This document shows positions 23,301 to 51,857 of a DNA stretch of 64,000 nucleotides, piece after piece (position 1 is the first letter of the stretch; every line of letters begins with the position of its first letter). Position numbers and translations under genes: made by a program. The notes beneath the pieces were generated by a model. It had not been told where the DNA came from, searched no databases, and saw only the letters and a list, made by a program, of their open reading frames with translations. Origin of the DNA: Candidatus Latescibacterota bacterium (GTDB lineage Bacteria > Latescibacterota > UBA2968 > UBA8231); assembly GCA_965203175.1 (NCBI GenBank), contig OZ241867.1:320001-384000 (forward strand), in the 5' to 3' direction.

Positions 23301-26300
23301 CATGGCGTTGGCCGACGGGTTCGACAGCGTTACCGTGAAGGTCTCAGGCTCCACCGCCTCCTCCTCGTCGTCGTCCACGGTCGCCACAGAAGCCATACCC
23401 GTGAGCGAACCCGCAGCAATACTCACCGTAACCGAGGTCGCCTCAAAGTCGGCTTGCGTTGCCGTGTCGTCATCCCCAATCGAGGTAGCCAAAGTGACCG
23501 TCACCTCCGCGTCGGCAGCCTCCGACAGCGTCACCGTGAACTCCACAGCGTCACCCTCGTCTGCACTCGCATCAGCCACGCTCAACGACGGCGGCGGCGG
23601 CATGTCGTCATTGGTAATCGAGCCCTTCGCGCTCGACGCAGCAGGATCCAACACGGCGTTCGTCGGGTCCGACAGCGTCACCGTGAAGGTCTCGTCCTCC
23701 TCAATAGCGTCGTCTTCCGCGGTCGCCACAGAAGCCGTACCCATGAGCGAACCGGCAGTAATAGTCACCGTACCCGATTCTCCCATGAAGTTGGCGAAGT
23801 CATCTGGGGTTGCCGTGTCGTCAGACTCAATCGAGACCTCGTAGCCGACCGTCACATCCGCGGCGGCAGCCGCCGACAGAGTCACTGTGATACCCACAGC
23901 TTCACCCTCGGCCGCGCTCCCAACTTCCACGCTCAACGACGGCGACTCGTTGTCGGTGATCATGCCCTGCGCGCTCGACGCAGCAGGATCCAACATGGCG
24001 TTGGCCGAAGGGTTCGACAGCGTTACCGTGAAGGTCTCAGGCTCCAACGCTTCAAGAAGGTTGTCGTCCTCGGTCTCCACAGAAGCCATACCCGTGAGCG
24101 AACCCGCAGCAATAGTCACCGTAACCGAGGTCGCCTCGAAGTCGGCTTGCGTTGCCGTGTCGTCATCCCCAATCGAGGTAGCCAAGGTGACCGTCACATC
24201 CGCGTCGGCAGCCGCCGATAGGGTCACCGTGAACTCCATATCATTACCCTCGGTCGCATTCCCATCAGCCACGCTCAACAACGGCAACGGCGGCATAATC
24301 GAGCCCTTCGCGCTCGACGCAGCAGGATCCAACACGGCGTTCGTCGGGCTCGACAGCGTCACCGTGAAGGTCTCGCCCTCCTCATCGCCGTTTGCCGCAG
24401 TCATCACAGAAGCCATCCCCATGGTCTCACCCACAAGAATAGTCACCGTACCCGATGCTCCCGCGAAGTCGTCGAAGTCATCTGGGCCTGCCGTGTCGTC
24501 AGACTCAATCGAGACCTTGTAGTCGACCATCACCTCCATGTCGGTCGCATCCGACAGGGTCACTGTGATATCCACAGCACCACCCTCGGTCGCGCTCTTA
24601 ACAGCCACGCTCAACGACGGCAAATCGTTGTCGGTGATCGTGCCCGTCGCGCTCGACGGGTCGCCCAACACGGCGTTGGCCGAAGGGTTCTCCAGCGTCA
24701 CCTTGAAGGTCTCGCTCCCCTCAACATCGGTGTCGTCCACGGTCATCACAGAAGCCATTCCTTCTGTGTCACCCGCAGCAATAGTCACCATCCTAGGGGT
24801 GTCCGCGAAGTCGTCGCCAGACTCAGTCGAGATCGCGAAGTCGACCGTCACATCCGCGTCGGCTTCCGCCGACAGGGTCACTGTGATATCCACAGCACCA
24901 CCCTCGGTCGCATCCGCAACAGCCACGCTCAACGACGGCAACGGCGACATATCTTCGCTGGAGATCGTGGCCTTTACGCTCGACATGTCGCCCAACTCGG
25001 CGTTCGTCGGGTTCGACAGCGTCACCGTGAAGGTCTCGTCCTCCTCAACAAGCTCGTCGTTCACGGTCTCCACAGGCGGCACCATTACCGAGGTCTGACC
25101 CGCAGTAATAGTTACCGTACCCGTTCCTGCCATGAAGTCGACGAAGTCAGCTGGGTCTGCCCCGTCATCAGCCTCAATCGAAATCTCGTACTCCACCGTC
25201 ACATCCTGACCGGTCGCCGCCGACAGCGCCACCGTGAACACCACATCCTCACCCTCGGCCACGGCCGCAGCAGGAGCAGACACGCTCAACGACGGCATAT
25301 CTTCGCTTCTGATCGTGGCCTCCGCGCTCGACATGTCGCCTACCATTGCATTATCCGAGGTTGCCGATAGCGTCAGCGTGAAGGTCTCATCCACCTCAAT
25401 ATCGTCGTCGTCCTCGGTCGCCACAGGCACCGTCGTCGAGGTCATACCCACAGCAATAGTCGCCATACCCTCGGGGACCGCCGTGAAGTCGTCACCGCTG
25501 GTTGCTGTGCCGTCCGAGGTACTGTATGTCACCGTCACCGGTGCGATAGCCTCCTTCGACAGGGTCACCGTGAACACTGCATCATCACCCTCGGCCACGG
25601 GATCCGCAGGACCAGACACGCTCACCGACGGCAAGTGGCCCTTGATCGTGCCCGTCGCGGTCGCCGTAGCAGGAGGTAACCCTGGTACCAAGGCATTGCC
25701 AGACGGGCCCGGGTCAGCCAATCTCAACTCGAAGGTCTCGGCCGGCTCATCGATGCCGTCGGCCACGATCGGCACAGACACTGTCTTCTCCGTGTCACCC
25801 GCAGCAAAAGTCAGCGTCACCGACGCCGGTGTAGTTCCAGTTGTAATCGCTGTAAAGTCGCTACCCTCGGTCGCCGTGAGGTCGGTGTCAGTCGGAGTCC
25901 CGACGACCGTGTAAGTTACCGTCGTCTCTATGCTGCTCGCCCCCGTCAGCGACACCGTGAAGGTCGCAAAGGTACCCTCGTCCACGGGATCGCCAGCCAT
26001 CACATTAAAATCTGGAGTAGCGTCGTTGTCAGTGATCGTGTACGTCGTCACCGCCAGCTCCGTGCCCCCCCCAGAGAGTGTTGCGTTCGCCCCCTCAGCC
26101 GGCAGCGTCAGCGTCAATGTGATGCCCTCAGTGTCCACCTCATCGATTTCGTCGTCGATGATCGGCACAGACACTATCTTCTCCGTGTCACCCGGCTCAA
26201 AAGTCAGCGTCCCCTCGGTCGCCTCAAAGTCATCATCACTGGCACCAGTCCCAGCCGTGACCGAGGCCGTGTAATTTACCATCACTACCAGGTCGCTCGG

Positions 26301-26885
26301 TGTCTGCGTATCCGCGGGACCCAGCGTCACCCTGTACGTCGCCGATGCATTCTCCGCCACTGCGGCCGGATCCGCAACCGCAACCATGTTCACCACTACC
26401 GGCTCGGTGTTATCGGTGATCGTGCCCGTCGCCTTCAGCTCCGTGACCCCCCCCGAGAATGTTACGCCATCCGGGTTCGACAGCACCAGCGTGAAGGTCT
26501 CTTCAGGCTCATCAAGAGCATCGGTCAGTGCAGCGATCGTAATCGTCTCCGTCGAAGTCCCACCAGCAGTCCCCGTAATAGTCAACGTGCTCGGTGTCGA
26601 CGTGAAGTCAGTTGCTAGGCTTGCTGGGTTGTCAGCCGAAGCATCAACTACAGCCACGTAGTCCACTGTCGCGGTTTCGGGCGTTCCGTCAACCACTCCC
26701 AACGGGGGCGTCAGCACCACCGTGAAGGTAACATCACCACCCTCTGTGCCGGTCCCATTCCCTACCAATAACGTCGGCAGTTCCTGCGCCGCCGCCTCTC
26801 CGGTCCATCCTAATACCAAACCAACGGCCAACAACCAAGGCATATAGGCCAACCGTCGCACGAATAACTTCGTGTCGTGTATCAT
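17358..26885 (-). CDS. Giant (3175 aa) secreted adhesin-like protein: many Calx-beta repeats, putative Ig (He_PIG) domains, FN3-like, EF-hand/dockerin-like, cohesin-like and T9SS/FlgD-Ig CTD
   Basis: Repeats of EG.A.VFTVTLS...DD..E..ETFTVTL...ATGTI.DND; LPAGLSFD..TR..SGTP units; paired FDDFFIFADSFG / FEDFFVFADNFG; NNYPNPFNP tail. Confidence 0.9.
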   Translation of the reverse strand: MIHDTKLFVRRLAYMPWLLAVGLVLGWTGEAAAQELPTLLVGNGTGTEGGDVTFTVVLTPPLGVVDGTPETATVDYVAVVDASADNPASLATDFTSTPSTLTITGTAGGTSTETITIAALTDALDEPEETFTLVLSNPDGVTFSGGVTELKATGTITDNTEPVVVNMVAVADPAAVAENASATYRVTLGPADTQTPSDLVVMVNYTASVTAGTGASDDDFEATEGTLTFEPGDTEKIVSVPIIDDEIDEVDTEGITLTLTLPAEGANATLSGGGTELAVTTYTITDNDATPDFNVMAGDPVDEGTFATFTVSLTGASSIETTVTYTVVGTPTDTDLTATEGSDFTAITTGTTPASVTLTFAAGDTEKTVSVPIVADGIDEPAETFELRLADPGPSGNALVPGLPPATATATGTIKGHLPSVSVSGPADPVAEGDDAVFTVTLSKEAIAPVTVTYSTSDGTATSGDDFTAVPEGMATIAVGMTSTTVPVATEDDDDIEVDETFTLTLSATSDNAMVGDMSSAEATIRSEDMPSLSVSAPAAAVAEGEDVVFTVALSAATGQDVTVEYEISIEADDGADPADFVDFMAGTGTVTITAGQTSVMVPPVETVNDELVEEDETFTVTLSNPTNAELGDMSSVKATISSEDMSPLPSLSVAVADATEGGAVDITVTLSAEADADVTVDFAISTESGDDFADTPRMVTIAAGDTEGMASVMTVDDTDVEGSETFKVTLENPSANAVLGDPSSATGTITDNDLPSLSVAVKSATEGGAVDITVTLSDATDMEVMVDYKVSIESDDTAGPDDFDDFAGASGTVTILVGETMGMASVMTAANGDEEGETFTVTLSSPTNAVLDPAASSAKGSIMPPLPLLSVADGNATEGNDMEFTVTLSAAADADVTVTLATSIGDDDTATQADFEATSVTVTIAAGSLTGMASVETEDDNLLEALEPETFTVTLSNPSANAMLDPAASSAQGMITDNESPSLSVEVGSAAEGEAVGITVTLSAAAAADVTVGYEVSIESDDTATPDDFANFMGESGTVTITAGSLMGTASVATAEDDAIEEDETFTVTLSDPTNAVLDPAASSAKGSITNDDMPPPPSLSVADASADEGDAVEFTVTLSEAADAEVTVTLATSIGDDDTATQADFEATSVTVSIAAGSLTGMASVATVDDDEEEAVEPETFTVTLSNPSANAMLGDMSSAKGSIVDDEVPSVSVAAASADEGDAVVFTVMLSKTSTVAQSLSYGISIEVNDTATPDDFDDFMGASGTVTIPAGETSRTVSVATAEDDRVELNETFTLTVGAATATGTIRDDDLPSVSVADASADEGDAVVFTVTLSVADDEAMMLDYATSIGDDDTAKQTDFTATSGTLTIAAGDTEGMVSVPTVDDAEEEAVQPETFTLTVGDATATGSIVDDEVPSVSVADASAVEGDAVVFTVTLSKMSTVAQNLSYSISLEGTDTATQADFADFAGASGTVIIPAGSTSTVVRVATRDDNGVEEDETFTLTVGGLTATGTITDNDVFTPPPTGAITLTVSGGGGPDGNKVREDAGATDLTVKAKVGAKVAADTYIALSLASGSDAELNKRFRITLPNLLIPKDKDEISGTITFTPIATKGTDDTDLTIAIMANSGVDFGTAMIELIDADKPSTDIDLSFSKGSISEEEGPIDITVTATLNGAVDTKKALTFALVIDEEAAREAAAANAKEEVAVRDVDYTTLSLPSLTIPRKKSSGSTTIRIDPKSRDRGESVDAVLVGIGASEPELNDGAITVNPGTIKITDTPLASIKGLTATPGTIREDAGETEVALKVTLTAALPNDEEVLFTIMDAVESGTDAVTTFLDGTVAASRDVNYTAIVGDLTIAAGSTEGTTTLSLTPVDNDARGSALGLIVRARVGNTNFEAGIKIVDDETPTTNIALSVAPAEVKAATGANEITVTGEIDGSTFDDPVNISLVLAPNGSDGATAQRDTDYEATLRSLTIPAGEVRGSTTISVTALNGGDKKVVVKALKSPVKNDDDEDVTVGTATITLKDADPAEEPVDPGALRFSALPGNTEGVKDTAFNMELPEAEGGEGDRTYSVSANLPAGLSFDESTRVISGSPTTVGKANVVYTVIDTEGNSAATQFSIDVAAAPPPTVAVASVEASQKSIRESGDTTEISITARLAGAAPAAETVEFRLGAPSSGAEAIRDVDYAASLGGSVAIEAGATEASTTLTLTPIDDATVDGNKFLGVQASASGGSASVDIKIADDETASTSISLSADPHTVSEADGVTDIVVTATLDGKVLDADATVTISIDPASKATRDEDYAALFNPSLTILAGSISGSIALIIDPNSDSEDEGNETITLTGVSAGLTVESGTITISEGMMDPVDPPMDPLTFAEGAMINDVASTAGTAVSAMELPAASGGEGDITYSVSALPAGLSFDAATRTVSGTPEAEGTTEVTYTATDGAGATVTLSFSITVNPMLDFGDLSGLFGAFTGAGKANPASEHDEGAIQIVVGQPYSLTIPEVPGGTPPKVYSVSGLPAGLSFDPATRTVSGTPTEIGLAAVVLTVVDAAGASGSVPIPVSVIAPPLGAPSNLVAQDYAGADGQGDQGGFLLLTWELSEHHDEIDGYRIFRALPVLGNEMVPWAMVDAVPGVERGVAIVATLDNVSTRWGIAAERGGQTTHGAAKAVFVSAENQPYAQMAETLMASMEAAQAGDAPVFASLLPEALAYAQGVAPKLNVVAGVLSSEVIFTDEPVRAIDNIAPLAVPSLRVLDAPNDQGSRIALTWTLSPSDQILQDVVAGAVGPLGVEPVVGVYGYNIYRRAAGEDEFAKIAQVDAGVTSFVDETALNGVRYTYQVRPYDLDNETGSDIEHTAMAVRNIAVDSEGRALLGLFGTDNRIGFDDFFIFADSFGLTAEDTGFDPAFDLSPNATIDFEDFFVFADNFGRSTAAAGKRVPMFAGLNADARMYLDARTAMPIVGEDFVLDVRVADFAAIKGYGLQVQYEADKLEFVQVLTDEPLGGSAFATPQVLADEAGVLTVVAHGDVVSDGEVALGLVFRPTTEIENTLIEIADNQTYDSEFGFNRLALPAPVQLQTRPEAFALANNYPNPFNPATTIKYALPQAADVELTVYNVVGQVVRTLVAEHQSAGRYVVEWDATNDNGHSLSSGMYFYRLEAGGEFHEVKKMLLLK

Positions 26886-27409
26886 TACTTAACCTCCCCA
26901 GGGAAAGCTTCCCTGATTAAGAAAGTGATATAAAAAAATGGATTTACTTCAATCCGACTAAGACTTCGCATTCCTGTTCCTGTTCGTGCGTGTTTCATAT
27001 GCCCCCTTTCGCGGCTTTTTCGCGGATAATACAGACGCATTATCCTCTATAATAGAGTTAATTATACCGAGAAAAAATAGAAGTGTCAAGAATTAATTCC
27101 CCTTTAACTTCATTAGCCAAAATACCTTATATCCCTTCCCTTATATCCCTTCATGTCATCCCTTATTTTCAAGGGCAAAGAGCAATAACAAAGGATATCA
27201 ATTTATATACTGATACCCCTACTTGTCAACATATCTATGCACCGGACGACGATTTTTTGCCAATCACTCCTGTGCCTCGTACGATTCGGTAGCCGCCACC
27301 ACGCGGTCGCCGGTGGCTAATCCGCCTAGGCCGGTCACATCGCGCCACTCTCCATAACAGCCGCCTCATCCAAGGCCGTCGGCAAATATCCCCCATCCCC
27401 AACCCTTTG

Positions 27410-30999: not shown

Positions 31000-31596
31000 T
31001 CAGAGCACGCCCTTGGTCGAAGGAATGCCCTGAACCCGCTCGCTGTGCTGCACAGCCATGAGCAGGGCGCGGGCGAACGCCTTGAACAGAGCCTCAATGC
31101 CGTGGTGGGCATTGTGGCCGCGCACGAGGTCGAGGTGCAGATTCATCCGGCCTTGGTCGGCCACCGCGTAGAAGAACTCGCGCACCAAAGACACATCCAG
31201 CGCGCCGACCCGCTCTTCGCTAAAGGCCGCAGCAAAAACCAAATAGGCCCGGCCCGACAAATCTATCACTGCCCGCGCCAAGGCTTCGTCCATGGGCACG
31301 TAGCTGTGGCCGTAGCGCTGGATACCGGCCTTGTCGCCCAAGGCTTGGGCAATGGCTTGGCCGAGACAGATGCCCACGTCTTCCACTGTGTGGTGAGCGT
31401 CCACGTGCAGGTCGCCGCGGCATTGGACCTCTAGGTCGCACAGGCCGTGCCGAGCCAAGGCGTGGAGCATGTGGTCGAAAAAGCCGAGGCCGGTGTCGGC
31501 GCGGCACTGGCCGCTACCGTCGAGACACAGCGACAACTCGATCTCGGTCTCGGTCGTCTGGCGCACAATCTGCGCCGTGCGGCGGTCTGCGCTCAT
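31000..31596 (-). CDS. hisB: Imidazoleglycerol-phosphate dehydratase
   Basis: RQTTET, FFDHML, HHTVED, PMDEAL, NAHHGIEA and PSTKGVL. The true start ATG at 31596 overlaps the hisD stop. Confidence 0.96.
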   Translation of the reverse strand: MSADRRTAQIVRQTTETEIELSLCLDGSGQCRADTGLGFFDHMLHALARHGLCDLEVQCRGDLHVDAHHTVEDVGICLGQAIAQALGDKAGIQRYGHSYVPMDEALARAVIDLSGRAYLVFAAAFSEERVGALDVSLVREFFYAVADQGRMNLHLDLVRGHNAHHGIEALFKAFARALLMAVQHSERVQGIPSTKGVL

Positions 31597-32897
31597 GGCG
31601 TGGGCTTCTGTTGGCGGATGCGGATGGCTTGCGCGTGGGCCTCCAAGCCCTCGGCCTGCGCCATGCGGGCGATGTGCTCGGCCGCGTGGGCCAAGCGCTC
31701 GGGGGTGTAGGCGATAATGCTCGTCGTCTTGACGAAATCGGCCCATCCCAACGACGAGGCGTAGCGCGCCGCGCCTTGGGTCGGCAACACGTGGTTGGTG
31801 CCGGCGAAGTAATCGCCGACCGGCTCGGAAGAAGCCGCGCCGAGGAACAGCGCGCCGCAGTGGCGAATGGAGTCCACCCAGCGCCACGGGTCGGCCACCT
31901 GCAACTCGGCGTGTTCCGGCGCTAGGCGGTTGAGCAGCTCAATCCCCACTTCGAGGCTAGGCACCACGACAATCGCGCCATATTCTTCTAAAGCACTACT
32001 TATAATTGAATAGCGCGGAAGCGCCGCTCGCTGCGCTTCGATTTCCTCCTGCACGCGGCGCGCTAGGGCCTCGCAATCCGTGATACACACGGCCGCCACC
32101 CCCCAGCCGTGCTCGGCTTGCGAGAGCAAATCCGCAGCTACCAAGCGCGGATCGGCCGCCGCGTCGGCGAGCACCACAATTTCCGACGGGCCGGGCAACA
32201 GCGCGATGCCCACCGCGCCGAAGACCTGCCGCTGCGCGGCCACCGTATAGGGAGAACCCGGGCCGACGATCTTGTGCACCGGCGGAATGCTCTCCGTGCC
32301 ATACGCGAGCGCAGCCACGGCCTGTGCCCCTCCTACGGCGTACACCTCGTCAATGCCCAACAAACACGCGGCCGCCGCAATCGTCGGATGCACCTTGCCG
32401 GTTTCCACCGGCGGCGAAACCACGCAGAGCTGGTCCACGCCAGCCACCTGCGCGGGCACGGCCGTCATCAGCAGGCTCGAAAACAGCGGCACCTCGCCAG
32501 CCGGCACGCACAAGCCCACCCGCTCGATGGGCGTGATTTTCTTGCCCAGCATCACCCCGTCGCCGTCTTCGACAAACCACGAGTTGAGTTTTTGCCGCTC
32601 GTGGAAGGCGCGGATATTAGCTACCGCCGCCTCCATGGAAGCGCGCAGGCTCGGGTCCAGCGCAGCTTCTGCCTCGGCGAGCACGGACGCTGGCACCCGC
32701 AACTGCTCAGGGCACACCTCCACGCCATCGAACCGCTGCGTTAGCGCGCACAGCGCGGCATCGCCTTCTTTCCGCACCTGCCGCAGAATGTCTCGCACCG
32801 CGTCCTCGACCTTGGGGTCGGATTCGGGGCGGCGTGCAAACAGGGCGGCGAGCGGCTCGGCCAGCGGCTCGGAGGGATAGGACGCAATGGGCACCAT
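31593..32897 (-). CDS. hisD: Histidinol dehydrogenase
   Basis: GGAQA, KIVGPG, GPSE, DLLSQAEH, PEH and GDY..GTNHVLPT motifs. Confidence 0.96.
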   Translation of the reverse strand: MVPIASYPSEPLAEPLAALFARRPESDPKVEDAVRDILRQVRKEGDAALCALTQRFDGVEVCPEQLRVPASVLAEAEAALDPSLRASMEAAVANIRAFHERQKLNSWFVEDGDGVMLGKKITPIERVGLCVPAGEVPLFSSLLMTAVPAQVAGVDQLCVVSPPVETGKVHPTIAAAACLLGIDEVYAVGGAQAVAALAYGTESIPPVHKIVGPGSPYTVAAQRQVFGAVGIALLPGPSEIVVLADAAADPRLVAADLLSQAEHGWGVAAVCITDCEALARRVQEEIEAQRAALPRYSIISSALEEYGAIVVVPSLEVGIELLNRLAPEHAELQVADPWRWVDSIRHCGALFLGAASSEPVGDYFAGTNHVLPTQGAARYASSLGWADFVKTTSIIAYTPERLAHAAEHIARMAQAEGLEAHAQAIRIRQQKPTP

Positions 32898-32901
32898 CCG
32901 T

Positions 32902-33170
32902 TCAGTGCTATCGGGGTGTGATGTGTTGAGTCATCGTGAGTTCGAGCCGTTTTAGTCCCTGTGAGGAAGGGTGTCTTATACCTAGGCTGACCACTCGACC
33001 TGCTATTCGTAACGCATCCGGCAGGTATTCGGGCGCAACAAGCAAGCAAGGAAAAACATGAAACCAAGTCAACATAAATCGCCTTTCTCTCAGGGAGCAC
33101 AAGGCCCCGTCGAGAAAGCCGCTCCTATCCCCCCGAACGGCTAAAGCCGTCAGTCCCACGGAGATTATTG
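32902..33170 (-). mobile_element. Truncated non-autonomous IS200/IS605 derivative: left end plus the 5' part of the structured RNA cargo (copy C)
   Basis: 33170-33080 is closely similar to the IS605 left end at 10594-10685 and follows CCAT. 33037-32902 aligns with 36085-36259. Confidence 0.75.
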
Positions 33171-33726
33171 ATGGGCTTGGCTTCGTCTCCTCCCTCGGCC
33201 CCCTCGTTGCCGCTCAGTCCGTTTCATCAGGTGAGGTCCCTGAAATTCGATCTAACTGCCTGTTTTTCCTCGAAATCATCAGTACATCAGCATCTGCTGA
33301 CGATTTTGTAGTACAGCCTGATGGGCAACGGTCGTCTTTCGATCTACCAGCCAGCTCGCGGGCGATCCGTGGGGTGCTCGCTCCATCCCTCGGCGCGGGC
33401 GGTTGTCGGTTCGGGTCCTCGTCGCTTTCAATGCCGTTGAGCCAGAACGCCAAGCCCAAAAGACGGCTTGGCGTTCTGGCTTACAAGCGCGTAGCTCGAT
33501 GCGCTCACCTTCGCCTTGGGTTCGTCTAGGAGTGCGCCAGCGCTTGCCCATGCAAGCCGAACTAACATGTAAAGAAGCAGGCTTAGTAAAAGTGCTCGGC
33601 TTGGGTCAACTGCTCGGGGCAGACCGCTTCGCGGGCCATTATACCATCTGGTCTGGGATCTGGAACTGGAAAGGGAATTATATCTCTGAGTGCCCAATCC
33701 GTAGGAAAAACGAAATCGTATCAAAT

Positions 33727-35024
33727 GTCAACCACTGACGGCTGAAGCGCGTCAGCTTGTCCCTGGCCGTTACCCCGCCGCAGCGGAGTAGACCGAAACT
33801 ATAGGCTCGTTGACAAGAGCCCTTGCCCGGATGTTCCGGGCGGCGTTGCAATCGGCGTGAGCTTGATGTCCACATCGCTTGCAACAAAACCGGGATTGTG
33901 AGGAGCGATTACCGCGTTCGACATGTTCGCACTGAGAACACATCTGAGAAGTGTATTTGGGATCGACGATCTTGAGCAGTACGCCAGCTTGTTCAGCCTT
34001 GTAGCTGATAAACTGGCGAAGCTGATCGAAGCCCCAACTTCCCATGCGGTTACGTTGCGGCTTGCGAAACCGTATCCGGTCGCGGATGCCCTTGAGGTCT
34101 TCAAGAGCAATACCGAGACCGGTGTCTTTGGCCTTCGCAACGAGTCGCTTAGAGAGGGTGTGATTGGTGTTGCGACGAAAGCGTGCTTCTCTATCGGCAA
34201 TGCGTTTGAGCTTCTTGCGGATACGCTTGCGTCGTCGTGCATTGGCAGCCAAGTCGGCTGCCGATTGAAGAGCTTGCTTGAGCGTCTGGCATTTGACGCG
34301 AACTTCCTCCACGTCTTTACCGGTGTGAAGCTCGCCGTCCGAGTCAGTAGCCAGGTTCTCGACACCAAGATCAACGCCGAGAAAGTCGTCGGTATCACAC
34401 GGCGGCTCGGGTTCATGCTCGACACAGGCCATGATAAACCACTTGCCGTCCTTGCGGCGCACCAGTTCGGCAAACTGCTTGACTTGGTCAAACTGGTTGG
34501 CTTGGTAGTCGCCCATCACCATCGGGATGTCATGGCGAACACCATCCGCCGTCTTGATATTAACGGTCGTCAGGCTTTTGTAGCGGAACGAGCCTTTGCG
34601 GTAGGGAATAGCCGCCAGCGGACGAAACGAGACTTGCTTGGACTTGTCCCGCTTGTAGTTAGCCGCCACCTGAGAAAACGTCAGGATCGCAATATCAGCG
34701 GGCAGATCAAACGTCTCACGGACTTCGTAGTAGTACAGCTTGTGCAGCGCATAGCTGTTGGCCAACTGGCGCTCAAAGGCTTTTTCAGCCACCCAATTAC
34801 ACGCGGCATTAAAGCGGCGCATGGTCTCTTCGAGCGCGTTGGCTTGCTCAGCCATAGGAAGGAGCTTGATTTGTATAGTTCGTTTCACAAGAATGAATAT
34901 AGCCATAAGACGGCAGACTGTCAAGCTATGTCGGCCTTCCCTCAGGGACACTGCGTGCCCATCGTTCAGGCCGCTCTCTTTTCCCCTGCCAGCTAAAGCA
35001 GGCAGTCCCCAAGCGAGATTTTTT
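33727..35024 (-). mobile_element. IS1341-type (tnpB-only) element
   Basis: Follows CCAT (rc 35025-35028). Left hairpin CTGCCTGCTTTAGCTGGCAG; right end CAAGCTGACGCGCTTCAGCCGTCAGTGGTTGAC. Confidence 0.88.
33770..34951 (-). CDS. tnpB: RNA-guided endonuclease TnpB (start probably near VKRTIQIKL, ~34888)
   Basis: GVDLG, LEDL, HADCNAARNI and CSQC/CKRC zinc ribbon. Confidence 0.93.
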   Translation of the reverse strand: MSLREGRHSLTVCRLMAIFILVKRTIQIKLLPMAEQANALEETMRRFNAACNWVAEKAFERQLANSYALHKLYYYEVRETFDLPADIAILTFSQVAANYKRDKSKQVSFRPLAAIPYRKGSFRYKSLTTVNIKTADGVRHDIPMVMGDYQANQFDQVKQFAELVRRKDGKWFIMACVEHEPEPPCDTDDFLGVDLGVENLATDSDGELHTGKDVEEVRVKCQTLKQALQSAADLAANARRRKRIRKKLKRIADREARFRRNTNHTLSKRLVAKAKDTGLGIALEDLKGIRDRIRFRKPQRNRMGSWGFDQLRQFISYKAEQAGVLLKIVDPKYTSQMCSQCEHVERGNRSSQSRFCCKRCGHQAHADCNAARNIRARALVNEPIVSVYSAAAG

Positions 35025-35824
35025 ATGGGCTACGCGACACAGAAGCCATTAGCATTATTGGAGCGAATCGTAAAAGCCAGTTCTGACGAGGGCGATGTTG
35101 TACTAGATCCTTTCTGCGGCTGCGCTACGACACTTGAGGCGGCTCATAAGCTCAATCGCCGGTGGATAGGTATCGACATCGCTATACACGCTATCAAGCG
35201 CGTGGCGGCCGTACGGCTCAAAGATCGTCTAGGACTTTCTGAAGGTGTAGATTTTGAGATTGGAGGCGTTCCCAAAGACGTTGAGGGAGCAACATTATTG
35301 TGGGAACGAGATAAGTACCACTTTCAAAAGTGGGCCGTAGAGCAGGCCGAAGGCTTTGTTACAAGTAAGCGTTCTGCTGACGGTGGGGTTGATGGTCGCC
35401 TTTACTTCGAGGGCAATGTACCAGAAGGCAAAGGTCGCCAGAAATTGGAGAGCATGATCTTGGAAGTGAAAGGCGGCCAGAATGTAACACAAGCCGATCT
35501 ACGCAGTCTGCGCGGCGCGTTGGCCGATGATTCCTCTGCGTGTATGGCCAGAATGTAACACAAGCCGATCTACGCAGTCTGCGCGGCGCGTTGGCCGATG
35601 ATTCCTCTGCGTGTATGGCTGGTCTGATTATTCGGGTTCCGTTAGGGCCACGTAAACAGACCAACTTTGAGCGCGAAATGACAAGGGCCGGTAAGGTCCC
35701 AATTAGGGGCCGCGAATATCCTGTATTGCAATTACGAACCGTTGAGCAAATTCTTGCTGGCGATCCTTTTGACACCCCTCCCCCGCTAGGTCGCCATCAA
35801 ACGCCCCAGCAGCTTGTCTTTTAG
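35025..35824 (+). pseudogene. 3' remnant of a DNA N6/N4 methyltransferase fused to a restriction-endonuclease-like domain; 5' part missing and frameshifted
   Basis: GYATQKPLALLERI, VLDPFCGCATT and DGGVDG...LEVKGG. The frame is broken by a 71-bp tandem duplication. Confidence 0.85.
35475..35619 (+). repeat. 71-bp exact tandem duplication
   Basis: GGCCAGAATGTAACAC...GCGTGTAT starts at 35475 and again at 35546. Confidence 0.95.
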
Positions 35825-35899
35825 CTGGATTTAGGATTGAATCAGGTGTATATTTCAGTGGTGCTACCCTCCAACAATAGCACTTTTTTACACAGACAG

Positions 35900-35936
35900 G
35901 AGGGCCGTGCAGTTACCCGCTCGCGGCCCTCTTTTT
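35900..35936 (+). terminator. Intrinsic terminator
   Basis: GAGGGCCG...CGGCCCTC followed by TTTTT. Confidence 0.65.
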
Positions 35937-35965
35937 GCATCAACTTCAAGCCCATAAATTATCAT

Positions 35966-36445
35966 AAAAATCTCCTTTGGAGCCCCCCGTCTTTAGGCGG
36001 GGGAGGAAAAAGGTGTAGTCTCTGCGACAGGCGGCGCAACGCACCAGGCGTTGTGGCGTCCCCGAGCAGAGGCTTATATTAGGTGTGCGCCCGAATGGCT
36101 CCCGGATGCGTACGAGCAGTCTGGCCACAGTATTGTGGCCACATAGGAGCCCGAGCCAACAGCTTAGGCGATAAGGCACCCTCCAAGAGGGGTAAAACTG
36201 TTTAGCCCTTCGGGGCATGCGCTCAGGATGGCTGTTGGCACTACACGTCGATAGCACTGTATGCGTGGATCGAGTGCGCACTGGTAGTTCAGCCAGCCCG
36301 ACAGTGCGTTCCGAATGCCTCGGGGTCTCGCCCCCCAAGTGGCTGCTTGGTGTCAGCAGGCATATAGTTCCGCTGAGTAGCTCAATGTCGCATCCTGCGA
36401 TGTTAAGCCGCGTCCGTGATTCTCCTATTCGCACGGTGCTCGTGT
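35966..36445 (+). mobile_element. Non-autonomous IS200/IS605 derivative carrying the structured RNA (copy A; right end missing)
   Basis: Follows TCAT. Left hairpin CCCCCGTCTTTAGGCGGGGG. Nearly identical to the reverse complement of 42804-43282. Confidence 0.85.
36085..36434 (+). ncRNA. Putative ~350-nt structured non-coding RNA of unrecognised family
   Basis: Terminal pairing, several stems, a cUUCGg tetraloop, G-U-compatible variants and compensatory changes relative to copy C. No credible ORF. Confidence 0.65.
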
Positions 36446-36652
36446 AATGTTTAGGTTGCCTTCCTGTTTCGTTGCATAAGATCTCATGTGGTGTTTGAAA
36501 TGCCAAGCCCTTTCGCGGCCGATGATTGAGCCGATCCATGATGTGTTGTCAGACAGTGTATCGAGGGCCGTGCCTTTGGGCACATACTGGCGAATCAGCC
36601 CGTTGGTGTTCTCGTTGAGTCCGCGCTGCCAGGCATGATAGGGATGGGCGTT
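36446..36652 (-). pseudogene. IS30-family transposase C-terminal remnant
   Basis: The minus strand encodes HPYHAWQRGLNENTNGLIRQYVPKGT and, in a shifted frame, LNHRPRKGLAFQTP. Confidence 0.85.
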
Positions 36653-36843
36653 GAATTCAAGTTTTATTATGATTATGATTTTTTGCCTAATTACGGTATA
36701 ATTGGCCCCGCCAGGGCCTATCGCGCCTCAAATCCCGTTGTATCAACGATAACCAAGGGTATCCCGCATCCTGATGGAGGGCGACCTGCTCGACGGGGCG
36801 CACATCAAGACGGGTACGCTACCGGTCAGTCCCGAACCAAGAA

Positions 36844-37045
36844 GGTCTCCAGCTTGGTGGACCGGGCCAAGAACATCTTCCTAAGCAGCGGCGGAAGGCA
36901 CGACCTCGACCTTGACCTCGCGCTGGACCTGCCCCCAATCATGGCAGACCGATCACGCATCGTCCAGGTCCTGTCCAACCTCCTGTCCAACGCGGCACGG
37001 CACTCGCTGGAGTCGTCCGTCATCCGGGTGACCGCCCTGCGGGAG
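36844..37045 (+). pseudogene. Histidine kinase HATPase fragment
   Basis: DLPPIMADRSRIVQVLSNLLSNAARHS (N-box), truncated before the G boxes. Confidence 0.75.
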
Positions 37046-37188
37046 TACCCTTGCTGGGTATAATAGCGCTGGGAGGGACATAGCACCCTCATAAAGGGTC
37101 ATGCCCAAAGCCGATCCGCCCAGCCGATCGGCGTCAGCAGATACGAGACAGTTTTCTAACTCAACCGCTTCTACAAGGAGCTTTTCTT

Positions 37189-40170
37189 ATGAAGTCATTG
37201 ATGGTCAGTCTTCTCGGCTTGGTGTTGAGTGTCAGCGTTGGTGCCGAGCCCCTGCTTAAGGGTCGGGTCTGGCTGGCGTCGGGGCCGCCAGCGGCTGGGG
37301 TCCACGTGCGGCTGTTCGACCTAACCGACCTGCGCCGCTCCGTGGGCACGACCTCGGACGAGGCCGGGTATTTTGCCCTGCGGCTGGCAACCGTGGGTGG
37401 GCCGGCCCGTCCGCAGGATTTTGCGTTGGGGCAGAACTACCCCAATCCGTTCAATCCCTCGACGATCATTCCCTACCAACTACCTGATGCGACCCACGTG
37501 CGGTTGGAGGTGTTCAACCTGCTCGGGCAGCGGCTGGCGACGTTGGTGGATGGGGAACGGCCGGCCGGGGCGCATACGGCGCACTGGGACGCTACAGATG
37601 CGGCGGGTCGGGCGGTGGGCGCGGGCGTGTACATCTACCGGCTCAGCGGCGGCGGGCATACGGTGAGCCGGCGCATGGTGCTCATCGACGGACAGGCCGG
37701 CATTTCGGCGGGCGGGTCAGGACCGAGGCAGACGGCGGCTGTAGGCGTAAAAACGGAGGGCTCGGTCTATGGGTTGACCGTGGCCGGTGCCGGCTTGATC
37801 GCGTATGTGAACCCGGCGTTTCGGGTCGGGACAGACCAGGTCAATCTGGTGCTTGCACCGCCCGACGGCCAGGCGCGGATGAAGGTGGCCACGGGCGGGA
37901 TTTTGGGAGACGTGAACAACGATAGCCAAGTGGATGAATTTGATGTGCTGTATGTGGCGCTGTACAGCAAGGATCCCTCTATTACGCTGCCGAATAATGG
38001 CGACATTTCTCTCGGCGATGTCAACGGCGATGGCACGGTTGATCTGGCCGATGGCTTGCTCCTTGCTCTATACAAAGTCAATCCGTCTGATCCGACGTTG
38101 CCACCGGGGATCGGCCAACCCGTCGACGGCGGCGGGGATGATCACGGCGATAGCCCGTCGGCGGCGACGGATCTGGCGGTGGGCAGTTCGCAGTCGGGAC
38201 AGATCGAAACCGGCGGCGATGTCGATTACTTCCGCGTGGAGGTCAGTGAGTCAGGGGACTTGACCGTTCAAACGACCGGCCGCCTCGATACGAAGGGGCA
38301 GTTAGAGGATAGTGCGGGCGTAGTGCTGGCCAGCAACGACGATGGCGGCGACGGCTATAATTTCCGCATCGTCCACGCGGTCAGTGCCGGCACTCATTAC
38401 ATCAAGGTCGAAGGCTATAACGCCTCCGCCACCGGCAGCTATACCATTCTCGCCAGTGGCTCCGGCGGCAGCGACGGCGGGACTGTGAACATTGCAGATG
38501 CCAATCTTCGTGCGGTGATCGCAGACGCCTTGGGCAAGGCGCCGAATGCGCCGATTACCCCGGATGAAATGGCGACGTTGACGGGACTTAGCGCAGCCAA
38601 TGAAGGCATTCGCAACTTGGCCGGACTTGAGTTTGCAACCAATCTGACGGGGCTGGACCTTGGTGTAGAGCGGGTGGATGAGAGGTTGGTCAACAGCAAC
38701 GATATATCTAATCTCTCGCCGCTGGCGGGCTTGACCAACCTGACAAGATTGTACCTTGAATCCAACATCATCGCGGACGTATCGCCGCTGGCGGGCTTGA
38801 CCCGGCTGGAATTACTGAGTCTTGAAGCCAACAACATCACGGACGTATCGCCACTGGCGGGCTTGACCCGGCTGGAATTACTGAGTCTTAGCACCAACAA
38901 CATCACGGACGTATTGCCGCTGGCGGGCTTGACCAACCTGAGATGGTTGAGTCTTAGCACCAACAACATCGCGGACGTATTGCCGCTGGCGGGCTTGACC
39001 AACCTGACAAGATTGTACCTTTACGCCAACAGCATCGCGGACGTATCGCCGCTGGCGGGCTTGACCCGGCTGGAATTACTGAGTCTTTACGCCAACAGCA
39101 TCGCGGACGTATCGCCGCTGGCGGGCTTGACCCGGCTAGAAATAGTGAATCTTGAATCCAACATCATCGCGGACGTATCGCCGCTGGTGCGCTTGACCAA
39201 CCTGACCTGGTTGGATCTTCGAGGAAATCCTCTGAGCGTTGCCTCCATCAACGTTCATATTGCGGCCCTTGTACGTCGCGGGGTTGCGGTATTCTTTGAA
39301 TCGTTCCGCCAAGGAGACTTCGACATTGAACTCGTTTTTCTCGATCCCTTCACTGAATTTCAGAAGCGAGTGGTCGAATATGCGGCTAGGCGCTGGATGT
39401 CGATTATCCCAGAGGATCTACCGGACATTGAATTTCCTCGGAGCGTGTCAGGTCCGTGTTTCGATCGGTCGTTTACCATCTCCCGCGGAGAGCGGATAGA
39501 TGACCTGAGGATCTATGTGACCCACGTGCCCAATGGTGTCCCTGACTTTGTAGCTGGGATAGCTGGTCCAAGATTAATTCGTGTGGACTCCGGTCAGACT
39601 ATCGTCGGTTGCCTAGCACTCAGACCCGTCCCCCGTCTTTCTAGGTTCTTTAGAGAGCTAGCACTCCACGAGATGGGGCACGTCTTCGGAGTGGGGACGC
39701 TCTGGAATTATTTTGGCTTCCTTCAGGCTAGGTATGGCGACACGCACTTCAACGGGCCGCGGGCGACGGCCGCGTTTGACTACGCGGGCGGACGGAACTA
39801 CCCGGGGCCGAAAGTGCCGGTGCAGAGGGAAGTTGGAGCGCACTGGAGGGGTTCTGTGTTCCAGACCGAACTCATGATTCCGTACTTGAATGGGCGGGGG
39901 TGGCTGAGCGCGATCACGGTTCAATCCTTGGCCGATCTTGGCTATCGCGTCGATGTTACCCAGGCCGATCCCTATATCCTGCCCAATGCTGCACAGACCC
40001 GTGAGGAGATCGCGTCGATTGATGCTTGGGATGACCGCTTGAGCGAGGGGCTGAGCCTGTCCACCCATGTGGAGTCAAAGCTACAGTGCGGCGTCGGCAG
40101 CGGCCAAGCGCGGGAGTCGATCTATGTGGTCAATGAGCAGGGGGCTATCATCCGCACCCTAGGCGACTGA
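37189..40170 (+). CDS. Secreted modular protein: N-proximal FlgD-Ig/T9SS-like domain, dockerin, PPC, internalin-type LRRs and a leishmanolysin (M8)-like zinc metallopeptidase
   Basis: QNYPNPFNP near residue 82; GDVNND/GDVNGDG pair; DVDYF PPC; 22-aa LAGLTNL..L.L..N.I.DVSP repeats; HEMGH...GAHW...ELM. Confidence 0.85.
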   Translation: MKSLMVSLLGLVLSVSVGAEPLLKGRVWLASGPPAAGVHVRLFDLTDLRRSVGTTSDEAGYFALRLATVGGPARPQDFALGQNYPNPFNPSTIIPYQLPDATHVRLEVFNLLGQRLATLVDGERPAGAHTAHWDATDAAGRAVGAGVYIYRLSGGGHTVSRRMVLIDGQAGISAGGSGPRQTAAVGVKTEGSVYGLTVAGAGLIAYVNPAFRVGTDQVNLVLAPPDGQARMKVATGGILGDVNNDSQVDEFDVLYVALYSKDPSITLPNNGDISLGDVNGDGTVDLADGLLLALYKVNPSDPTLPPGIGQPVDGGGDDHGDSPSAATDLAVGSSQSGQIETGGDVDYFRVEVSESGDLTVQTTGRLDTKGQLEDSAGVVLASNDDGGDGYNFRIVHAVSAGTHYIKVEGYNASATGSYTILASGSGGSDGGTVNIADANLRAVIADALGKAPNAPITPDEMATLTGLSAANEGIRNLAGLEFATNLTGLDLGVERVDERLVNSNDISNLSPLAGLTNLTRLYLESNIIADVSPLAGLTRLELLSLEANNITDVSPLAGLTRLELLSLSTNNITDVLPLAGLTNLRWLSLSTNNIADVLPLAGLTNLTRLYLYANSIADVSPLAGLTRLELLSLYANSIADVSPLAGLTRLEIVNLESNIIADVSPLVRLTNLTWLDLRGNPLSVASINVHIAALVRRGVAVFFESFRQGDFDIELVFLDPFTEFQKRVVEYAARRWMSIIPEDLPDIEFPRSVSGPCFDRSFTISRGERIDDLRIYVTHVPNGVPDFVAGIAGPRLIRVDSGQTIVGCLALRPVPRLSRFFRELALHEMGHVFGVGTLWNYFGFLQARYGDTHFNGPRATAAFDYAGGRNYPGPKVPVQREVGAHWRGSVFQTELMIPYLNGRGWLSAITVQSLADLGYRVDVTQADPYILPNAAQTREEIASIDAWDDRLSEGLSLSTHVESKLQCGVGSGQARESIYVVNEQGAIIRTLGD
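38717..39210 (+). repeat. Tandem 66-bp LRR-coding repeats (~7 units)
   Basis: CGCCGCTGGCGGGCTTGACC recurs at 66-bp spacing. Confidence 0.85.
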
Positions 40171-40307
40171 AATAGCCTAGCGGGGCGCGTTGTATGAAGA
40201 GGCTCTAACAAAAGGGGGGGCAAACAAACCTCCACAGAGAAAAGGGCTACCAAAATAAGATACGAGACGGTTCTCTAACTCAACCGCTTCTACAAGGAGC
40301 TTTTCTT

Positions 40308-51400: not shown

Positions 51401-51835
51401 CGCACAAAGACCTATTCCATCGGCAGCTTGCAAAACGGTGTAGCATACAACGTGCGGGTGCGCGTCCACAACCTAAATCCCGACCCGGAGCTTTCCCTCA
51501 GTGCGTGGACCACTGCCACCGCTACCCCCACCGAGGACGCGGCGGCCAAACAGGCTGCGTCTTTTGAACTCGCCGCTGCGTATCCCAACCCGTTCAACCC
51601 CTCCACTACCATCAGCTACGCCTTGCCGCAAGCTGCCGACGTGCGCTTAGACATCTATAATGTAATGGGTCAACGAGTGCGGACGCTGGTCGCCGCCCAC
51701 CAACCCGCCGGTTACTACGCCGTCGAATGGAAGGCGACTGACGACAGCGGCCACACCCTATCATCCGGCGTGTATTTCTACCACTTGCAAGCCGGCGCGT
51801 TCCGCGCCACGAAGCGGATGCTGCTAATGCGCTAA
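45464..51835 (+). CDS. Giant (2123 aa) Calx-beta repeat secreted protein with He_PIG, two FN3 domains and a T9SS/FlgD-Ig CTD; paralog of 17358..26885
   Basis: Near-identical signal region and first ~800 aa; Calx-beta repeats; P..PT.LT...W.EP FN3 units; AYPNPFNP tail. Confidence 0.9.
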   Translation: MIHHAKLFVRRLAYMPWLLAVGLVLGWTGEAAAQELPTLLVGNGTGTEGGNVTFTVVVSPPLGVVDGEAETATVDYVARVEAGNTASLATDFTSIPMTLTITGAAAPGTSTATIDIAAVDDALDEPDETFTLELSRPSGVTFSGGGTTLTATGTIEDNDGPVTVNVAATATPAVVAEGPNTEAQFTVTLGTGDAPTPSGQVVMVDYEASASTGASADDFVATEGTLTFAVDETSKIVPVPIVDDDIHEVSTEGITLTLTLVEAPAVGNAALGTATATVTITDNEETPEFNVMAGDPADEGTFATFTVSLSGASSEQTTVNYTVVGTPTDTDLTATEGTDFTATTTAATLNFAAGETSKTVSVPIVADGIDEGDETFELRLADPAAPGGTLVPNLGDMATATGTIRGHLPSLSVFAPAEAVVEAEGAMAEFTVTLSKEATADVTVTYNTSLEPGDTAEQADFTAATNLTATITVGETSTKVSVTILDDDDIEENETFTLTLSNPSAGAMLGDMASAQATIADDDKPSLSVFAPAEAVAEGEDVVFTVALSDATGQDVTVEYEISIEAEDSAHPDDFENFMSETGTLTITAGQTSVMVPPVETVNDDLVEDDETFTLTLSNPSGAVLGDMLSAKATISSEDMSPLPSLSVAVADATEGGAVDITVTLSAEADADVTVAFDISTESGGDFATTSGMVTITAGDTEGMESVATVDDNDVEGSETFKVTLSNPSANAVLGDPSSATGTLTDNDLPSLSVAVGSATEGGAVGITVTLSAATDVEVTVDYKVSIESDDTAGPDDFDDFSEASGTMTIAVGETTEMVSVMTVDDDLLEALKPETFTVTLENPMNAVLDPARSSAKGSITDNELPLLSVAVAGATEGEAVGITVTLSAATDVEVTVDFAISTASGDDFAATPRTVTIDAGSLTGMASVMTVDDDDVEGSETFTVTLENPMNAVLDPAASSATGTLTDNDLPSLSVAVGSATEGGAVGITVTLSAATDVEVTVDYKVSIESDDTAGPDDFDDFSEASGTMTIAVGETTEMVSVMTVDDDLLEALKPETFTVTLENPMNAVLDPAASSAKGSITDNELPLLSVAVADATEGEAVGITVTLSAATNVEVTVDFAISTASSDDFETTSGTVSIDAGSLTGMASVATVDDDDVEGGETFTVTLENPMNAVLDPAASSATGTIADNDLPLLSVAVGSATEGGAVGITVTLSAATDVEVTVDFEVSIESDDTASPDDFANFREASGTVSIAAGSLTGTASVMTAPDDIIEPDETFTVTLSNPMNAVLNPIASSAQGTITDNDLPLLSVADGSAVEGEDVEFTVTLSVATDEAVTVNYATSVEDDDTATQADFKATSGTLTIAAGATEATVSVETVDDAEEEEPETFTLTLSDPSNAELSATMSSAQGSITDNESPTPSVSDASAVEGEDVEFTVTLSKASGVDQEFSYGISIEADDTASPDDFVDFVGGSGTLTIAAGATEATVSVATRDDNRVEEDETFTLTVGGLTAQGTITDNDVRVPPPTGAITLTVSPASVRENAGTATEVSVTASVDSPTDAAVTVSLALSGTAKEGTDYTISGTQSITIAAGETSDKTALTFTPINDAVYEGDETILITGTGTGYTSGSTRVTLIDDDEPSTPVSSGGGGGSPPPPPPPPSPSFDDKTIAAQFYIQGTAIDPLVFPIAQDGTKPLTYGLSQTSTAQAAIDPLTGLPDSLAFDPKTRTLTGTPATPLPATEFSYTVIDADGRTASLCFDITIYALIGPPTPPTDLTVAFDADGKLVLHWKEPARNGGYDLTSYEVQYQKTTSASWRRLAIRVPANHPTKTYTIGSLQADAEYNVRVRAYNLNPLPELSVGEWAMASTDETAMPDEIAAGTGEPAAAGAVCKPGLGDLLATEDAGDGEPSGDGDDGEPTAPSAPGAPTNLTATPGDGKLLLRWKEPTQTGGFDLTFYDLQYQKTTSTSWISVAIRIPANYRTKTYSIGSLQNGVAYNVRVRVHNLNPDPELSLSAWTTATATPTEDAAAKQAASFELAAAYPNPFNPSTTISYALPQAADVRLDIYNVMGQRVRTLVAAHQPAGYYAVEWKATDDSGHTLSSGVYFYHLQAGAFRATKRMLLMR
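47691..49030 (+). repeat. Near-identical 666-bp tandem duplication (two Calx-beta units) inside the gene
   Basis: CGCTCACCGACAACGATTTGCCG begins at 47691 and at 48357. Confidence 0.85.
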
Positions 51836-51857
51836 AACGCATCGTCCCGTACACCGC

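Follow-up and report, generated by a model that had tools for sequence, protein, structure and literature searches.

Introduction

Insertion sequences (IS) of the IS200/IS605 family transpose as single-stranded DNA (ssDNA), with subterminal DNA hairpins. Palindrome-associated transposable elements (PATEs) and stand-alone omega-RNAs used in trans have been described (accessible text of bioRxiv 10.1101/2023.03.14.532601 and PMC10691335). Here, we analyze a repeat found in 64,000 nucleotides of Candidatus Latescibacterota bacterium (assembly GCA_965203175.1, contig OZ241867.1, positions 320,001 to 384,000 of the forward strand), a stretch that we call the window. One truncated copy of this repeat, copy C, directly precedes the hisD gene, and a first-pass annotation made from the letters of the window alone had singled it out as a divergent third copy of a structured RNA connected with IS200/IS605 ends. 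We consider it probable that the repeat is a PATE whose RNA of ~415 nt combines an omega-RNA scaffold with an accessory 5′ domain and is used in trans, copy C being a dead copy.

The ISGst PATEs of Geobacillus stearothermophilus and the systems called OMEGA (obligate mobile element-guided activity), in the portion of their description available to us, have ends in common with the TnpB/TnpA IS of the same genome and no open reading frame (ORF); their scaffold ends at the right-end boundary, their guide comes from the flank, and TnpB and TnpA are supplied in trans. The elements studied here appear alike in each of these respects and differ by the length of their RNA, which includes a covarying 5′ domain of ~225 nt and a scaffold insertion of ~65–90 nt. 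In the cryo-EM structure of the ISDra2 TnpB, nucleotides −103 to −105 of the omega-RNA join −5 to −3 in a pseudoknot, while positions −20 to −17 are taken up by a UUUA loop (PMC10097598, accessible text). As far as that text goes, our elements share with ISDra2 a pseudoknot just 5′ of the guide with a segment ~100 nt upstream, a UUUA-loop hairpin at −20 to −17, the orientation and the right-end position. They differ in that no sequence similarity is detectable and in that the ISDra2 scaffold has 116 nt and overlaps the tnpB ORF, whereas the RNA described here, known from sequence, stands alone and carries large additions.

By layout, the nearest analogy for the accessory domain is that of the IStrons, which join a group I intron, an IS605 or IS607 element and an omega-RNA: in the parts of the IStron literature available to us, a large structured RNA likewise lies upstream of the omega-RNA within one element of IS200/IS605 type, and an interplay of the two is proposed. 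Unlike IStrons, the present elements have no group I signature in Rfam, end with C rather than G and are antisense to host genes. The omega-RNA of IscB (HEARO) sits, as a rule, at the left end with its guide outside that end, a rule that the accessible text of bioRxiv 10.1101/2023.03.14.532601 supports; here there is no Rfam match, a spacer separates the RNA from the left end, and the RNA ends at the right end. Finally, copy C resembles IS-derived promoters and leaders that replace operon coupling, being an IS fragment immediately 5′ of an uncoupled essential biosynthetic gene; it differs in being a piece of a guide-RNA gene, with a putative promoter role. The element class (PATE or stand-alone omega-RNA) is thus already known, while the accessory RNA domain is undescribed: no account of such a conserved 5′ domain was found in the accessible PATE and omega-RNA literature that was searched, supplementary tables aside.

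Results

An element without protein-coding genes and with IS200/IS605 ends

The genome carrying the window is labelled G000, its relatives G032, G039, G053 and so on, and their contigs L0xx. BLAST and nhmmer searches of G000 (6.58 Mb, one contig) found four copies of the repeat, A to D, and no others; three other genomes contain one copy each. Complete elements are B (537 nt, 43282 to 42746), D (565 nt, genome positions 5935750–5936314) and the G032 copy (563 nt, L008:1271–1833). Element length ranges from 456 to 565 nt. B, D and the G032 copy have a common layout: a YCAT flank is followed by a left end (LE) that contains a subterminal hairpin, by a spacer that is A+T-rich and variable, by ~415 conserved nucleotides and by a right end (RE) that reads GGCAGGGACAAGCC-hairpin-GGTGGCTGAC. 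Ends of the same kinds bound TnpB-only IS of this genome (such as those at 35024 to 33727 in the window and at genome positions 1225860–1227170) and the IS with tnpA and tnpB at 10595. The window features needed for this comparison are given below, where R2 stands for a covariance model whose training set consisted solely of six TnpB IS right ends from this genome.

35966–36445, plus strand: copy A, with LE, spacer and RNA; no right end, no 3′ strand of the pseudoknot, no R2 match
42746–43282, minus strand: copy B, complete ORF-less element of 537 nt, LE from 43282, right end GGTGGCTGAC; R2 match, no Pfam match
about 43161 to 42937, minus strand: 5′ accessory domain of copy B
42936 to 42746, minus strand: predicted omega-RNA core of copy B
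33727–35024, minus strand: TnpB-only IS upstream of copy C, with tnpB at 33770–34951 (393 aa; Pfam Cas12f1-like_TNB, OrfB_IS605)
10595–12305, plus strand: autonomous IS200/IS605, with tnpA at 10735–11130 and tnpB at 11131–12288 (Pfam Y1_Tnp, OrfB_IS605, Cas12f1-like_TNB); possible source of TnpA in trans

Copy A is 98.8% identical to B over 488 nt and lacks the last ~55 nt. Both carry a C(UUCG)G hairpin insertion. The 26-nt TGGCCACA..TGTGGCCA hairpin, reported by the first-pass annotation to be cleanly absent from copy C, is indeed absent there and from D too. ORFs inside the elements have no Pfam family match and are not conserved between copies. The repeat therefore shows what distinguishes PATEs, namely hairpin ends of a resident IS, no protein-coding gene and several copies at YCAT sites, and, judging from its sequence, it is a protein-less IS200/IS605 derivative of the PATE type. 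The connection of the RNA with IS200/IS605 ends, earlier thought to be old or recurrent, turned out to be intrinsic, the RNA being the cargo of an ORF-less IS200/IS605 element and ending in its right end.

Copies A and B are inverted relative to each other and lie 6.3 kb apart, with two genes encoding leucine-rich-repeat, dockerin and PPC domains between them.

The 3′ part of the RNA is predicted to be a TnpB omega-RNA scaffold

The 3′ ~190 nt of the RNA are homologous to the omega-RNA at the right ends of TnpB-only IS of the same genome. In alignment A7, the last 120–170 nt of five RNA elements were set against right-end sequences from six TnpB-only IS of this genome. As can be seen from their shared frame, GTCA(A/G)C..GC.TATAGT(T/C)TCG ... 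AGGGACAAGC - hairpin - GTGG(T/C)TGAC, the two groups have the same anchors, and in three helices 96.4% of 225 cells are paired, a value that dropped to 21–50% when the partner was slid and that 0 of 500 shuffles reached. The pseudoknot GUCARC/GYUGAC, of six pairs, is paired in 100% of cells in 11 sequences, and two of its pairs show two-sided changes (AU/GC exchanges with GU intermediates and one CG-to-AU exchange). Its 3′ strand is formed by the six bases before the transposon boundary.

Model R2 matched copy B (44.5 bits, E 5.5e-10) and copy D (43.1 bits, E 1.3e-9), in both cases over model positions 1–124, as well as the G032 copy (20.9 bits, E 0.001, model positions 47–115); it gave no match to A or C. 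The TnpB-only IS at 33727–35024, whose last ~125 nt are the omega-RNA region, scored 145.6 bits as a training member. A stretch of 89 nt stands in B and D in place of a 24-position stem of R2; such a scaffold insertion (~65–90 nt) is present in the RNA elements and absent from TnpB-encoding elements.

In B, D and the G032 copy, though not in C and A, the RNA homology extends to the boundary that follows GGTGGCTGAC, so that the flank is positioned as a guide. Copy B has TTTA at exactly −20 to −17, and the segment with which its last six bases pair lies ~150 nt upstream. A search of the genome with the flank "guides" of B and D, at up to one mismatch, gave no second site. We identify the 3′ part of the RNA, by its predicted structure, as a TnpB omega-RNA scaffold.

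The copies of G039 (L054:1324–1779) and G053 (L055:1498–1820) have no right-end hairpin, and the latter has no left end either. In both, the pseudoknot is retained and its changes are compensated (GTAAGC/GCTTAC in G039); neither has a tnpB neighbour. They may be either immobilised relics or domesticated RNAs.

The 5′ part of the RNA is a covarying accessory domain

The 5′ ~225 nt of the RNA, not present in TnpB-encoding relatives, comprise a lead GCGCCCGAAU, stem P_a, CGAG, helix H2 enclosing H3, the UAGG and UAAAAC motifs, helix H4 with the invariant loop CGAUAGCACUG, and a long hairpin, H5. The first-pass annotation had proposed that an alignment of the copies be compared with shuffled controls. 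In the 5′ core of seven sequences, 90.4% of 125 cells are paired and 13 of 18 pairs show two-sided changes; sliding the partner lowered pairing to 29–53%, and all 500 shuffles stayed below the observed value. For H2 in these seven sequences the figures are 88.7% of cells and seven of nine pairs, and for H4, 94.3% of cells and three of five pairs. RNAalifold, applied to MAFFT alignments of full copies, independently produced the same helices, with compensated changes at 21 of 94 pairs (four sequences) and 36 of 86 pairs (five sequences).

The variation of stem P_a, which first drew attention to copy C, was confirmed in a check of all the sequence statements, two of which needed correction (see below). 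Read along the minus strand from 33036 to 32994, copy C is GCGCCCGAAT-ACCTGC-CGGATGCGTTACGAATA-GCAGGT-CGAG, and copies A (36087, plus strand) and B (43161, minus strand) have GCGCCCGAAT-GGCTCC-...-GGAGCC-CGAG in the same frame, three pairs being different on both sides. The 24-nt stem pattern has three matches in the window against 0.03 expected, and none of 100 shuffles reached three. Copy D, with ACCCGC/GCGGGT, adds a fourth compensated pair. Since the stems of A/B, C and D differ and yet pair fully, P_a is known in three perfectly paired versions. In the alignment of the four copies (A4), the six-pair stem is paired in 24 of 24 cells, with two-sided changes at four of six pairs, while moving the partner by 1–3 columns left 25–50% paired. 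The P_a hairpin is confined to the A–D clade; the G032 and G039 copies bear another 5′ hairpin, TTCGG(T)/(A)CCGAG.

Because many pairs are G-U and A/B carry the C(UUCG)G insertion, an RNA on this strand is favoured. The covarying stems might instead be ssDNA hairpins that serve the TnpA transposase or replication, and the LE and RE hairpins of these elements are indeed of the subterminal DNA hairpin kind. We nevertheless find this explanation very improbable for the helices considered here: they lie inside the element, as much as 300 nt away from its ends, their many G-U pairs would be C-A on the other strand, a UUCG tetraloop is present, and the pseudoknot has the same geometry as in a solved omega-RNA. 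Moreover, the G039 and G053 copies keep the internal helices though their end hairpins are lost.

Rfam searches found no family on the elements, either in the window at gathering thresholds or in 32500–44000 and copy D at E up to 10. This result bears on whether the element is a miniature IStron, in which an omega-RNA is joined to a self-splicing intron, of group I or another kind, and which would excise itself from host transcripts. The succession of LE, structured RNA, omega-RNA and RE is as in ORF-less IStron derivatives (accessible text of bioRxiv 10.1101/2023.11.20.567912), but neither Intron_gpI nor any other intron matched the elements at E up to 10, the elements end with ...TGAC and not with G, and D and the G032 and G039 copies are antisense to the neighbouring gene, whose start codon they abut. 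We give this possibility next to no credence.

Possible contacts between the two parts of the RNA

Two long-range pairings may connect the 5′ domain with the 3′ part. The P_a loop sequence CGGAUGCG can pair with CGCAUCCG ~300 nt downstream, with 8 bp in B and with wobbles in A and D; the counterpart in the G032 and G039 copies is TTCGG/CCGAA. For the AGCAC of the H4 loop, a possible partner is GUGCU, the pentaloop of hairpin H9 (24 of 25 cells, one compensated pair, in G053). Both partners sit in the insertion that TnpB elements lack, and for this reason we regard the 5′ domain together with the scaffold insertion as a single accessory module. That this is a new module which docks on the omega-RNA and controls it, by pseudoknot gating, 5′ maturation or TnpB loading, and which in truncated form was co-opted as the leader that drives or tunes hisD-hisB, seems doubtful to us when taken as a whole. 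Such a module would be an equivalent, at the level of RNA, of the interplay between intron and guide RNA in IStrons, made from a fold not described before.

The loop motif CGATAGCACTG and its complement occur 5 + 3 times exactly in the genome against ~1.6 expected per strand; four of these sites are the copies, so the remainder is at chance level. A match of 28 of 31 positions between copy D (genome 5936033–5936063, the region of the H2 3′ strand) and 927179–927209 was judged to be due to chance; the latter lies in the coding sequence of a conserved membrane protein. The match is found again in six other genomes of the genus.

Copy C is a truncated relic

Copy C extends from 33170 to 32898 of the window on the minus strand. 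An nhmmer profile built without it recovers it at E 1.8e-18. Its parts, where R1 is a covariance model of the 5′ core RNA, are as follows.

33171–33175, minus strand: target or transposon-adjacent motif CCCAT beside the left end, read directly; YCAT also flanks A, B, D, the G032 copy, the locus labelled E and the TnpB IS copies
33082–33170, minus strand: LE with subterminal hairpin GACTGACGGCTTTAGCCGTTCGGGG and the block ..GACGGGG..CTCCCTGAG..; 83% identity to the LE at 10595–10688
33041–33081, minus strand: AT-rich spacer between LE and RNA, presumed to be the RNA promoter region; the spacer is A+T-rich and non-conserved in all copies
32998–33036, minus strand: 5′ lead GCGCCCGAAT and stem P_a (ACCTGC/GCAGGT), with CGGATGCG in the loop; from stem covariation
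32923–32997, minus strand: CGAG, H2 (5′ strand 32985–32994, 3′ strand 32923–32932), H3 (CCCT/AGGG), TAGG and TAAAAC; from the R1 alignment
32895–32918, minus strand: helix H4 with invariant loop CGATAGCACTG (32903–32913), its 3′ strand GGATG including the hisD ATG; from the R1 alignment

The blocks TAGG, CACCCT, TAAAAC and CGATAGCACTG, noted earlier as conserved, are borne out by sequence comparison. So is the closeness of the left end to that of the autonomous IS: it is 83% identical over 94–100 nt to the LE of the IS with tnpA and tnpB at 10595, and over 61 nt its identity with the LE of copy D is 85%. A distinction between CCAT-type and TCAT-type ends, by contrast, does not hold, because the motif is the flanking target YCAT and not the element end, and D combines a C-type end with a TTCAT flank. 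Nor does the fragment stop 4 nt before the hisD ATG as had been stated; the homology reaches the ATG itself (...CGATAGCACTGAACGG followed by ATGGTG).

Selection on the RNA structure, which the first-pass annotation had proposed, is upheld for the family by the covarying helices, and not for copy C itself. Copy C keeps a perfect P_a; its H2 pairs at just 7 of 10 positions (by eye), and its H4 has one C.A mismatch. Everything beyond ~150 nt of the RNA is missing, including the scaffold, the pseudoknot, the right end and the guide; the partner CGCATCCG of the P_a loop CGGATGCG, found ~300 nt downstream in full copies, is missing as well. Since pairs of H2 and H4 are broken and these parts are lost, copy C is, as a guide RNA, a 3′-truncated relic, which keeps the 5′ domain alone and cannot act in that capacity.

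The hisG-hisD locus

Two further features are required to describe the surroundings of copy C.

31593–32897, minus strand: hisD, histidinol dehydrogenase, 434 aa (PF00815, E 1.3e-155), followed by hisB (next ORF, imidazoleglycerol-phosphate dehydratase, PF00475)
52096–52212, plus strand: IS remnant consisting of a solo right end/omega-RNA, directly at the hisG stop codon (R2 65.2 bits, E 1.8e-15)

Copy C joins hisD between 32898 and 32897 (...CGATAGCACTGAACGG, then ATGGTGCCC), and the 3′ strand of its H4 (GGATG) is thus partly hisD sequence. A public contig is identical to the window across 32763–33824, although the run behind it may be the source of the assembly itself; as it covers this interval without differences, the junction is not taken to be an assembly artefact. 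The ATG and the codons after it represent the native hisD start, since most of the listed relatives align from base 1 and the rest from 3, 19 and ~80. In 9 of the 11 genus relatives inspected, the hisG stop overlaps the hisD start (GTGTATTGATGG). In G043 and G050, an antisense IS left end lies exactly at the CCAT before hisD, the reverse complement of ATGG. Copy C is fused to the native hisD ATG at this IS insertion hot spot.

In the window, hisG (PF01634; HisG domain 52455–52943) ends at 52212–52214, and the solo right end lies directly after it as the reverse complement. A block of 19.3 kb (32898–52212) now parts hisG from hisD; within it lie the TnpB IS, copies A, B and C, a giant Calx-beta gene, a DDE transposase and a fragment of a group II intron. 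The deletion may have come about through GATGG, a microhomology between H4 and the hisG/hisD junction.

The RNA precedes hisD in none of the 11 relatives inspected, unlike a native his-operon leader of the attenuator or T-box type. Nevertheless, one may ask whether the 5′ domain functions on its own, as a ribozyme, sensor or regulator that the element merely carries, and whether copy C is a stand-alone version, still functional and under selection, that regulates hisD. The strong conservation and covariation of the 5′ core, its invariant single-stranded motifs and its failure to match any known Rfam family would fit such an RNA; P_a is perfect in C, where H4 would sequester the hisD ATG. However, the 5′ core is always accompanied by the omega-RNA part outside C (six of six other loci), both proposed long-range partners lie in the 3′ part, C has three unpaired positions in H2 and one in H4, its position before hisD is shared by 0 of 11 relatives, and the minimum free energy of the C fragment is no better than that of shuffles (z = +0.89). 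We hold this explanation to be unlikely.

A role of the fragment as hisD-hisB leader is plausible, since it lies directly against the ATG and since hisD is no longer translationally coupled to hisG, as it was ancestrally. Being uncoupled, hisD would have to be expressed from a transcript that starts in the copy C fragment or crosses it.

A side observation concerns G050, where an IS mosaic in the ~330 nt before hisD (L068) includes a sense right end GTGGCTGAC and an H9-like fragment CCTCCCTAAGCCGTGGTGCTCATGCTA. This mosaic suggests that the RNA element once occupied the hisD hot spot in the common ancestor of G000, G043 and G050.

Read on the opposite strand, the target YCAT becomes ATGR (sites 33171–33175, 35025–35029, 43283–43287, L006:5745–5750, L008:1266–1271 and L054:1319–1324), and the left end abuts the start codon of an opposite-strand gene in D and in the G032 and G039 copies, as it does at hisD in G043 and G050 (L065, L068). 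The IS family may tend to insert at start codons and sometimes supply a ribosome-binding site. The reverse complement of the LE (AAAATCTCC) puts GGAG ~7–9 nt upstream of ATG in several copies, D and C among them; the corresponding site is not GGAG in G043, G050 and G039.

Other features of the region were noted in passing. The solo right end (52203–52215) ends with TTGAT rather than the usual TTGAC, and that base restores the hisG stop codon, TGA, which would have been lost through the insertion. The only real Rfam match is to group II intron domain V/VI (RF00029, 61.8 bits), at 43732–43816 on the plus strand, with no adjacent reverse-transcriptase ORF seen. A DDE_5 transposase gene lies at 44394–45152 on the minus strand. 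Between 22268–26912 and 45437–50081, in two giant genes of Calx-beta repeats, there are large near-duplicate stretches in inverted orientation (up to 1097 nt at 90%); the Calx-beta gene at 45464–51835 has a type IX secretion sorting domain. The TnpB IS splits an N6/N4 DNA methylase gene (34758–35558, plus strand) after CCCAT, inside the conserved ..TQKP..DPF.G.. region.

Distribution of the RNA and of its candidate trans factors

The searches found seven RNA loci, all in one genus, where 4 of 31 genomes have them; the other sequences searched gave none. Covariance models were run on the genus, the family and a phylum sample, and large collections were scanned by exact, strict patterns. Within the genus, R1 found two further divergent members, in G039 (58.6 bits) and G053 (21 bits, E 0.14); the latter was accepted after reading, as it is recognisably homologous over its whole length. 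At E ≤ 1, matches in the family came from 4 of 76 genomes. In the phylum sample, 3 of 151 genomes had matches at E ≤ 0.1, all of genus g1, G053 being unmatched under these settings. Weak matches of a lax R1 search of the genus (E 0.03–5) were set aside, the best, in G026, because it lies in a coding gene, and the others as noise, unread. A strict pattern, CGATAGCACTG..GTGTCAGCAGGC, retrieved from a collection of genome contigs only the G032 contig already known; a scan of viral contigs gave no match, nor did blastn against plasmids and phages. The one match of a metagenome pattern scan fell within an unrelated AT-rich spacer and was dismissed as chance. These patterns are too strict to demonstrate that the RNA is absent elsewhere.

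The proteins that the elements would need are at hand in G000, where tnpB of the cognate group is present as six full genes and tnpA as two (the second at genome position 4688201). G000 and G032, both with close TnpB homologues, carry elements whose ends are intact, and the copies with decayed ends are those of G039 and G053, where this query gave just a fragment or TnpBs of 41–49% identity. This is consistent with dependence on TnpB, at two genomes against two and with no statistic.

Discussion

The reading that we favour, a PATE whose RNA is an omega-RNA scaffold with an accessory 5′ domain, implies the following course of events. The RNA would be transcribed from the spacer in the direction from LE to RE and run beyond the right end into ~16–20 nt of flank, which would become the guide. 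Resident TnpB would use this RNA in trans, and TnpA would be provided by the two tnpA genes. By re-cutting the emptied site, TnpB would cause the element to be retained, as proposed for PATEs and stand-alone omega-RNAs. The accessory domain may dock on the scaffold insertion via CGGAUGCG/CGCAUCCG, and perhaps by the loop–loop contact too, and may stabilise, mature or gate the guide RNA.

Several results count against this reading. The RNA family is represented by a small and related sample (seven loci, with A nearly the same as B, in four genomes of one genus), and the alignment of the seven 5′ core sequences (A8) was fitted to the model, a procedure that favours structure. Single-sequence folding of the whole RNA of D gave z = −1.02 relative to shuffles, and the four 5′ domains (z = +0.89, +1.18, −1.48 and −0.13) folded no better than shuffles. 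As to the scaffold, R2 did not match the G039 and G053 copies, both without a right-end hairpin, and in a local alignment of the RNA with the 3′ 420 nt of the TnpB IS, significance is confined to the last ~50 nt; since plain similarity spans just this length, the case for an omega-RNA rests on structure and short anchors. The CGGAUGCG/CGCAUCCG helix shows no two-sided change and has no counterpart in G053, and the AGCAC/GUGCU loop pairing, equalled by 102 of 500 shuffles, is weakly supported. A sigma-70 scan found no promoter-like site in 32700–33800.

The distribution in one genus is narrow, and it limits the value of the finding. Within that range, the locus offers a case in which IS200/IS605 insertions at a start codon break an operon junction and a guide-RNA fragment is left as the new leader of the gene. 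Furthermore, a guide RNA about three times as long as the usual scaffold, with an extra conserved domain, could reveal how guide RNAs are regulated or provide a compact add-on for TnpB tools.

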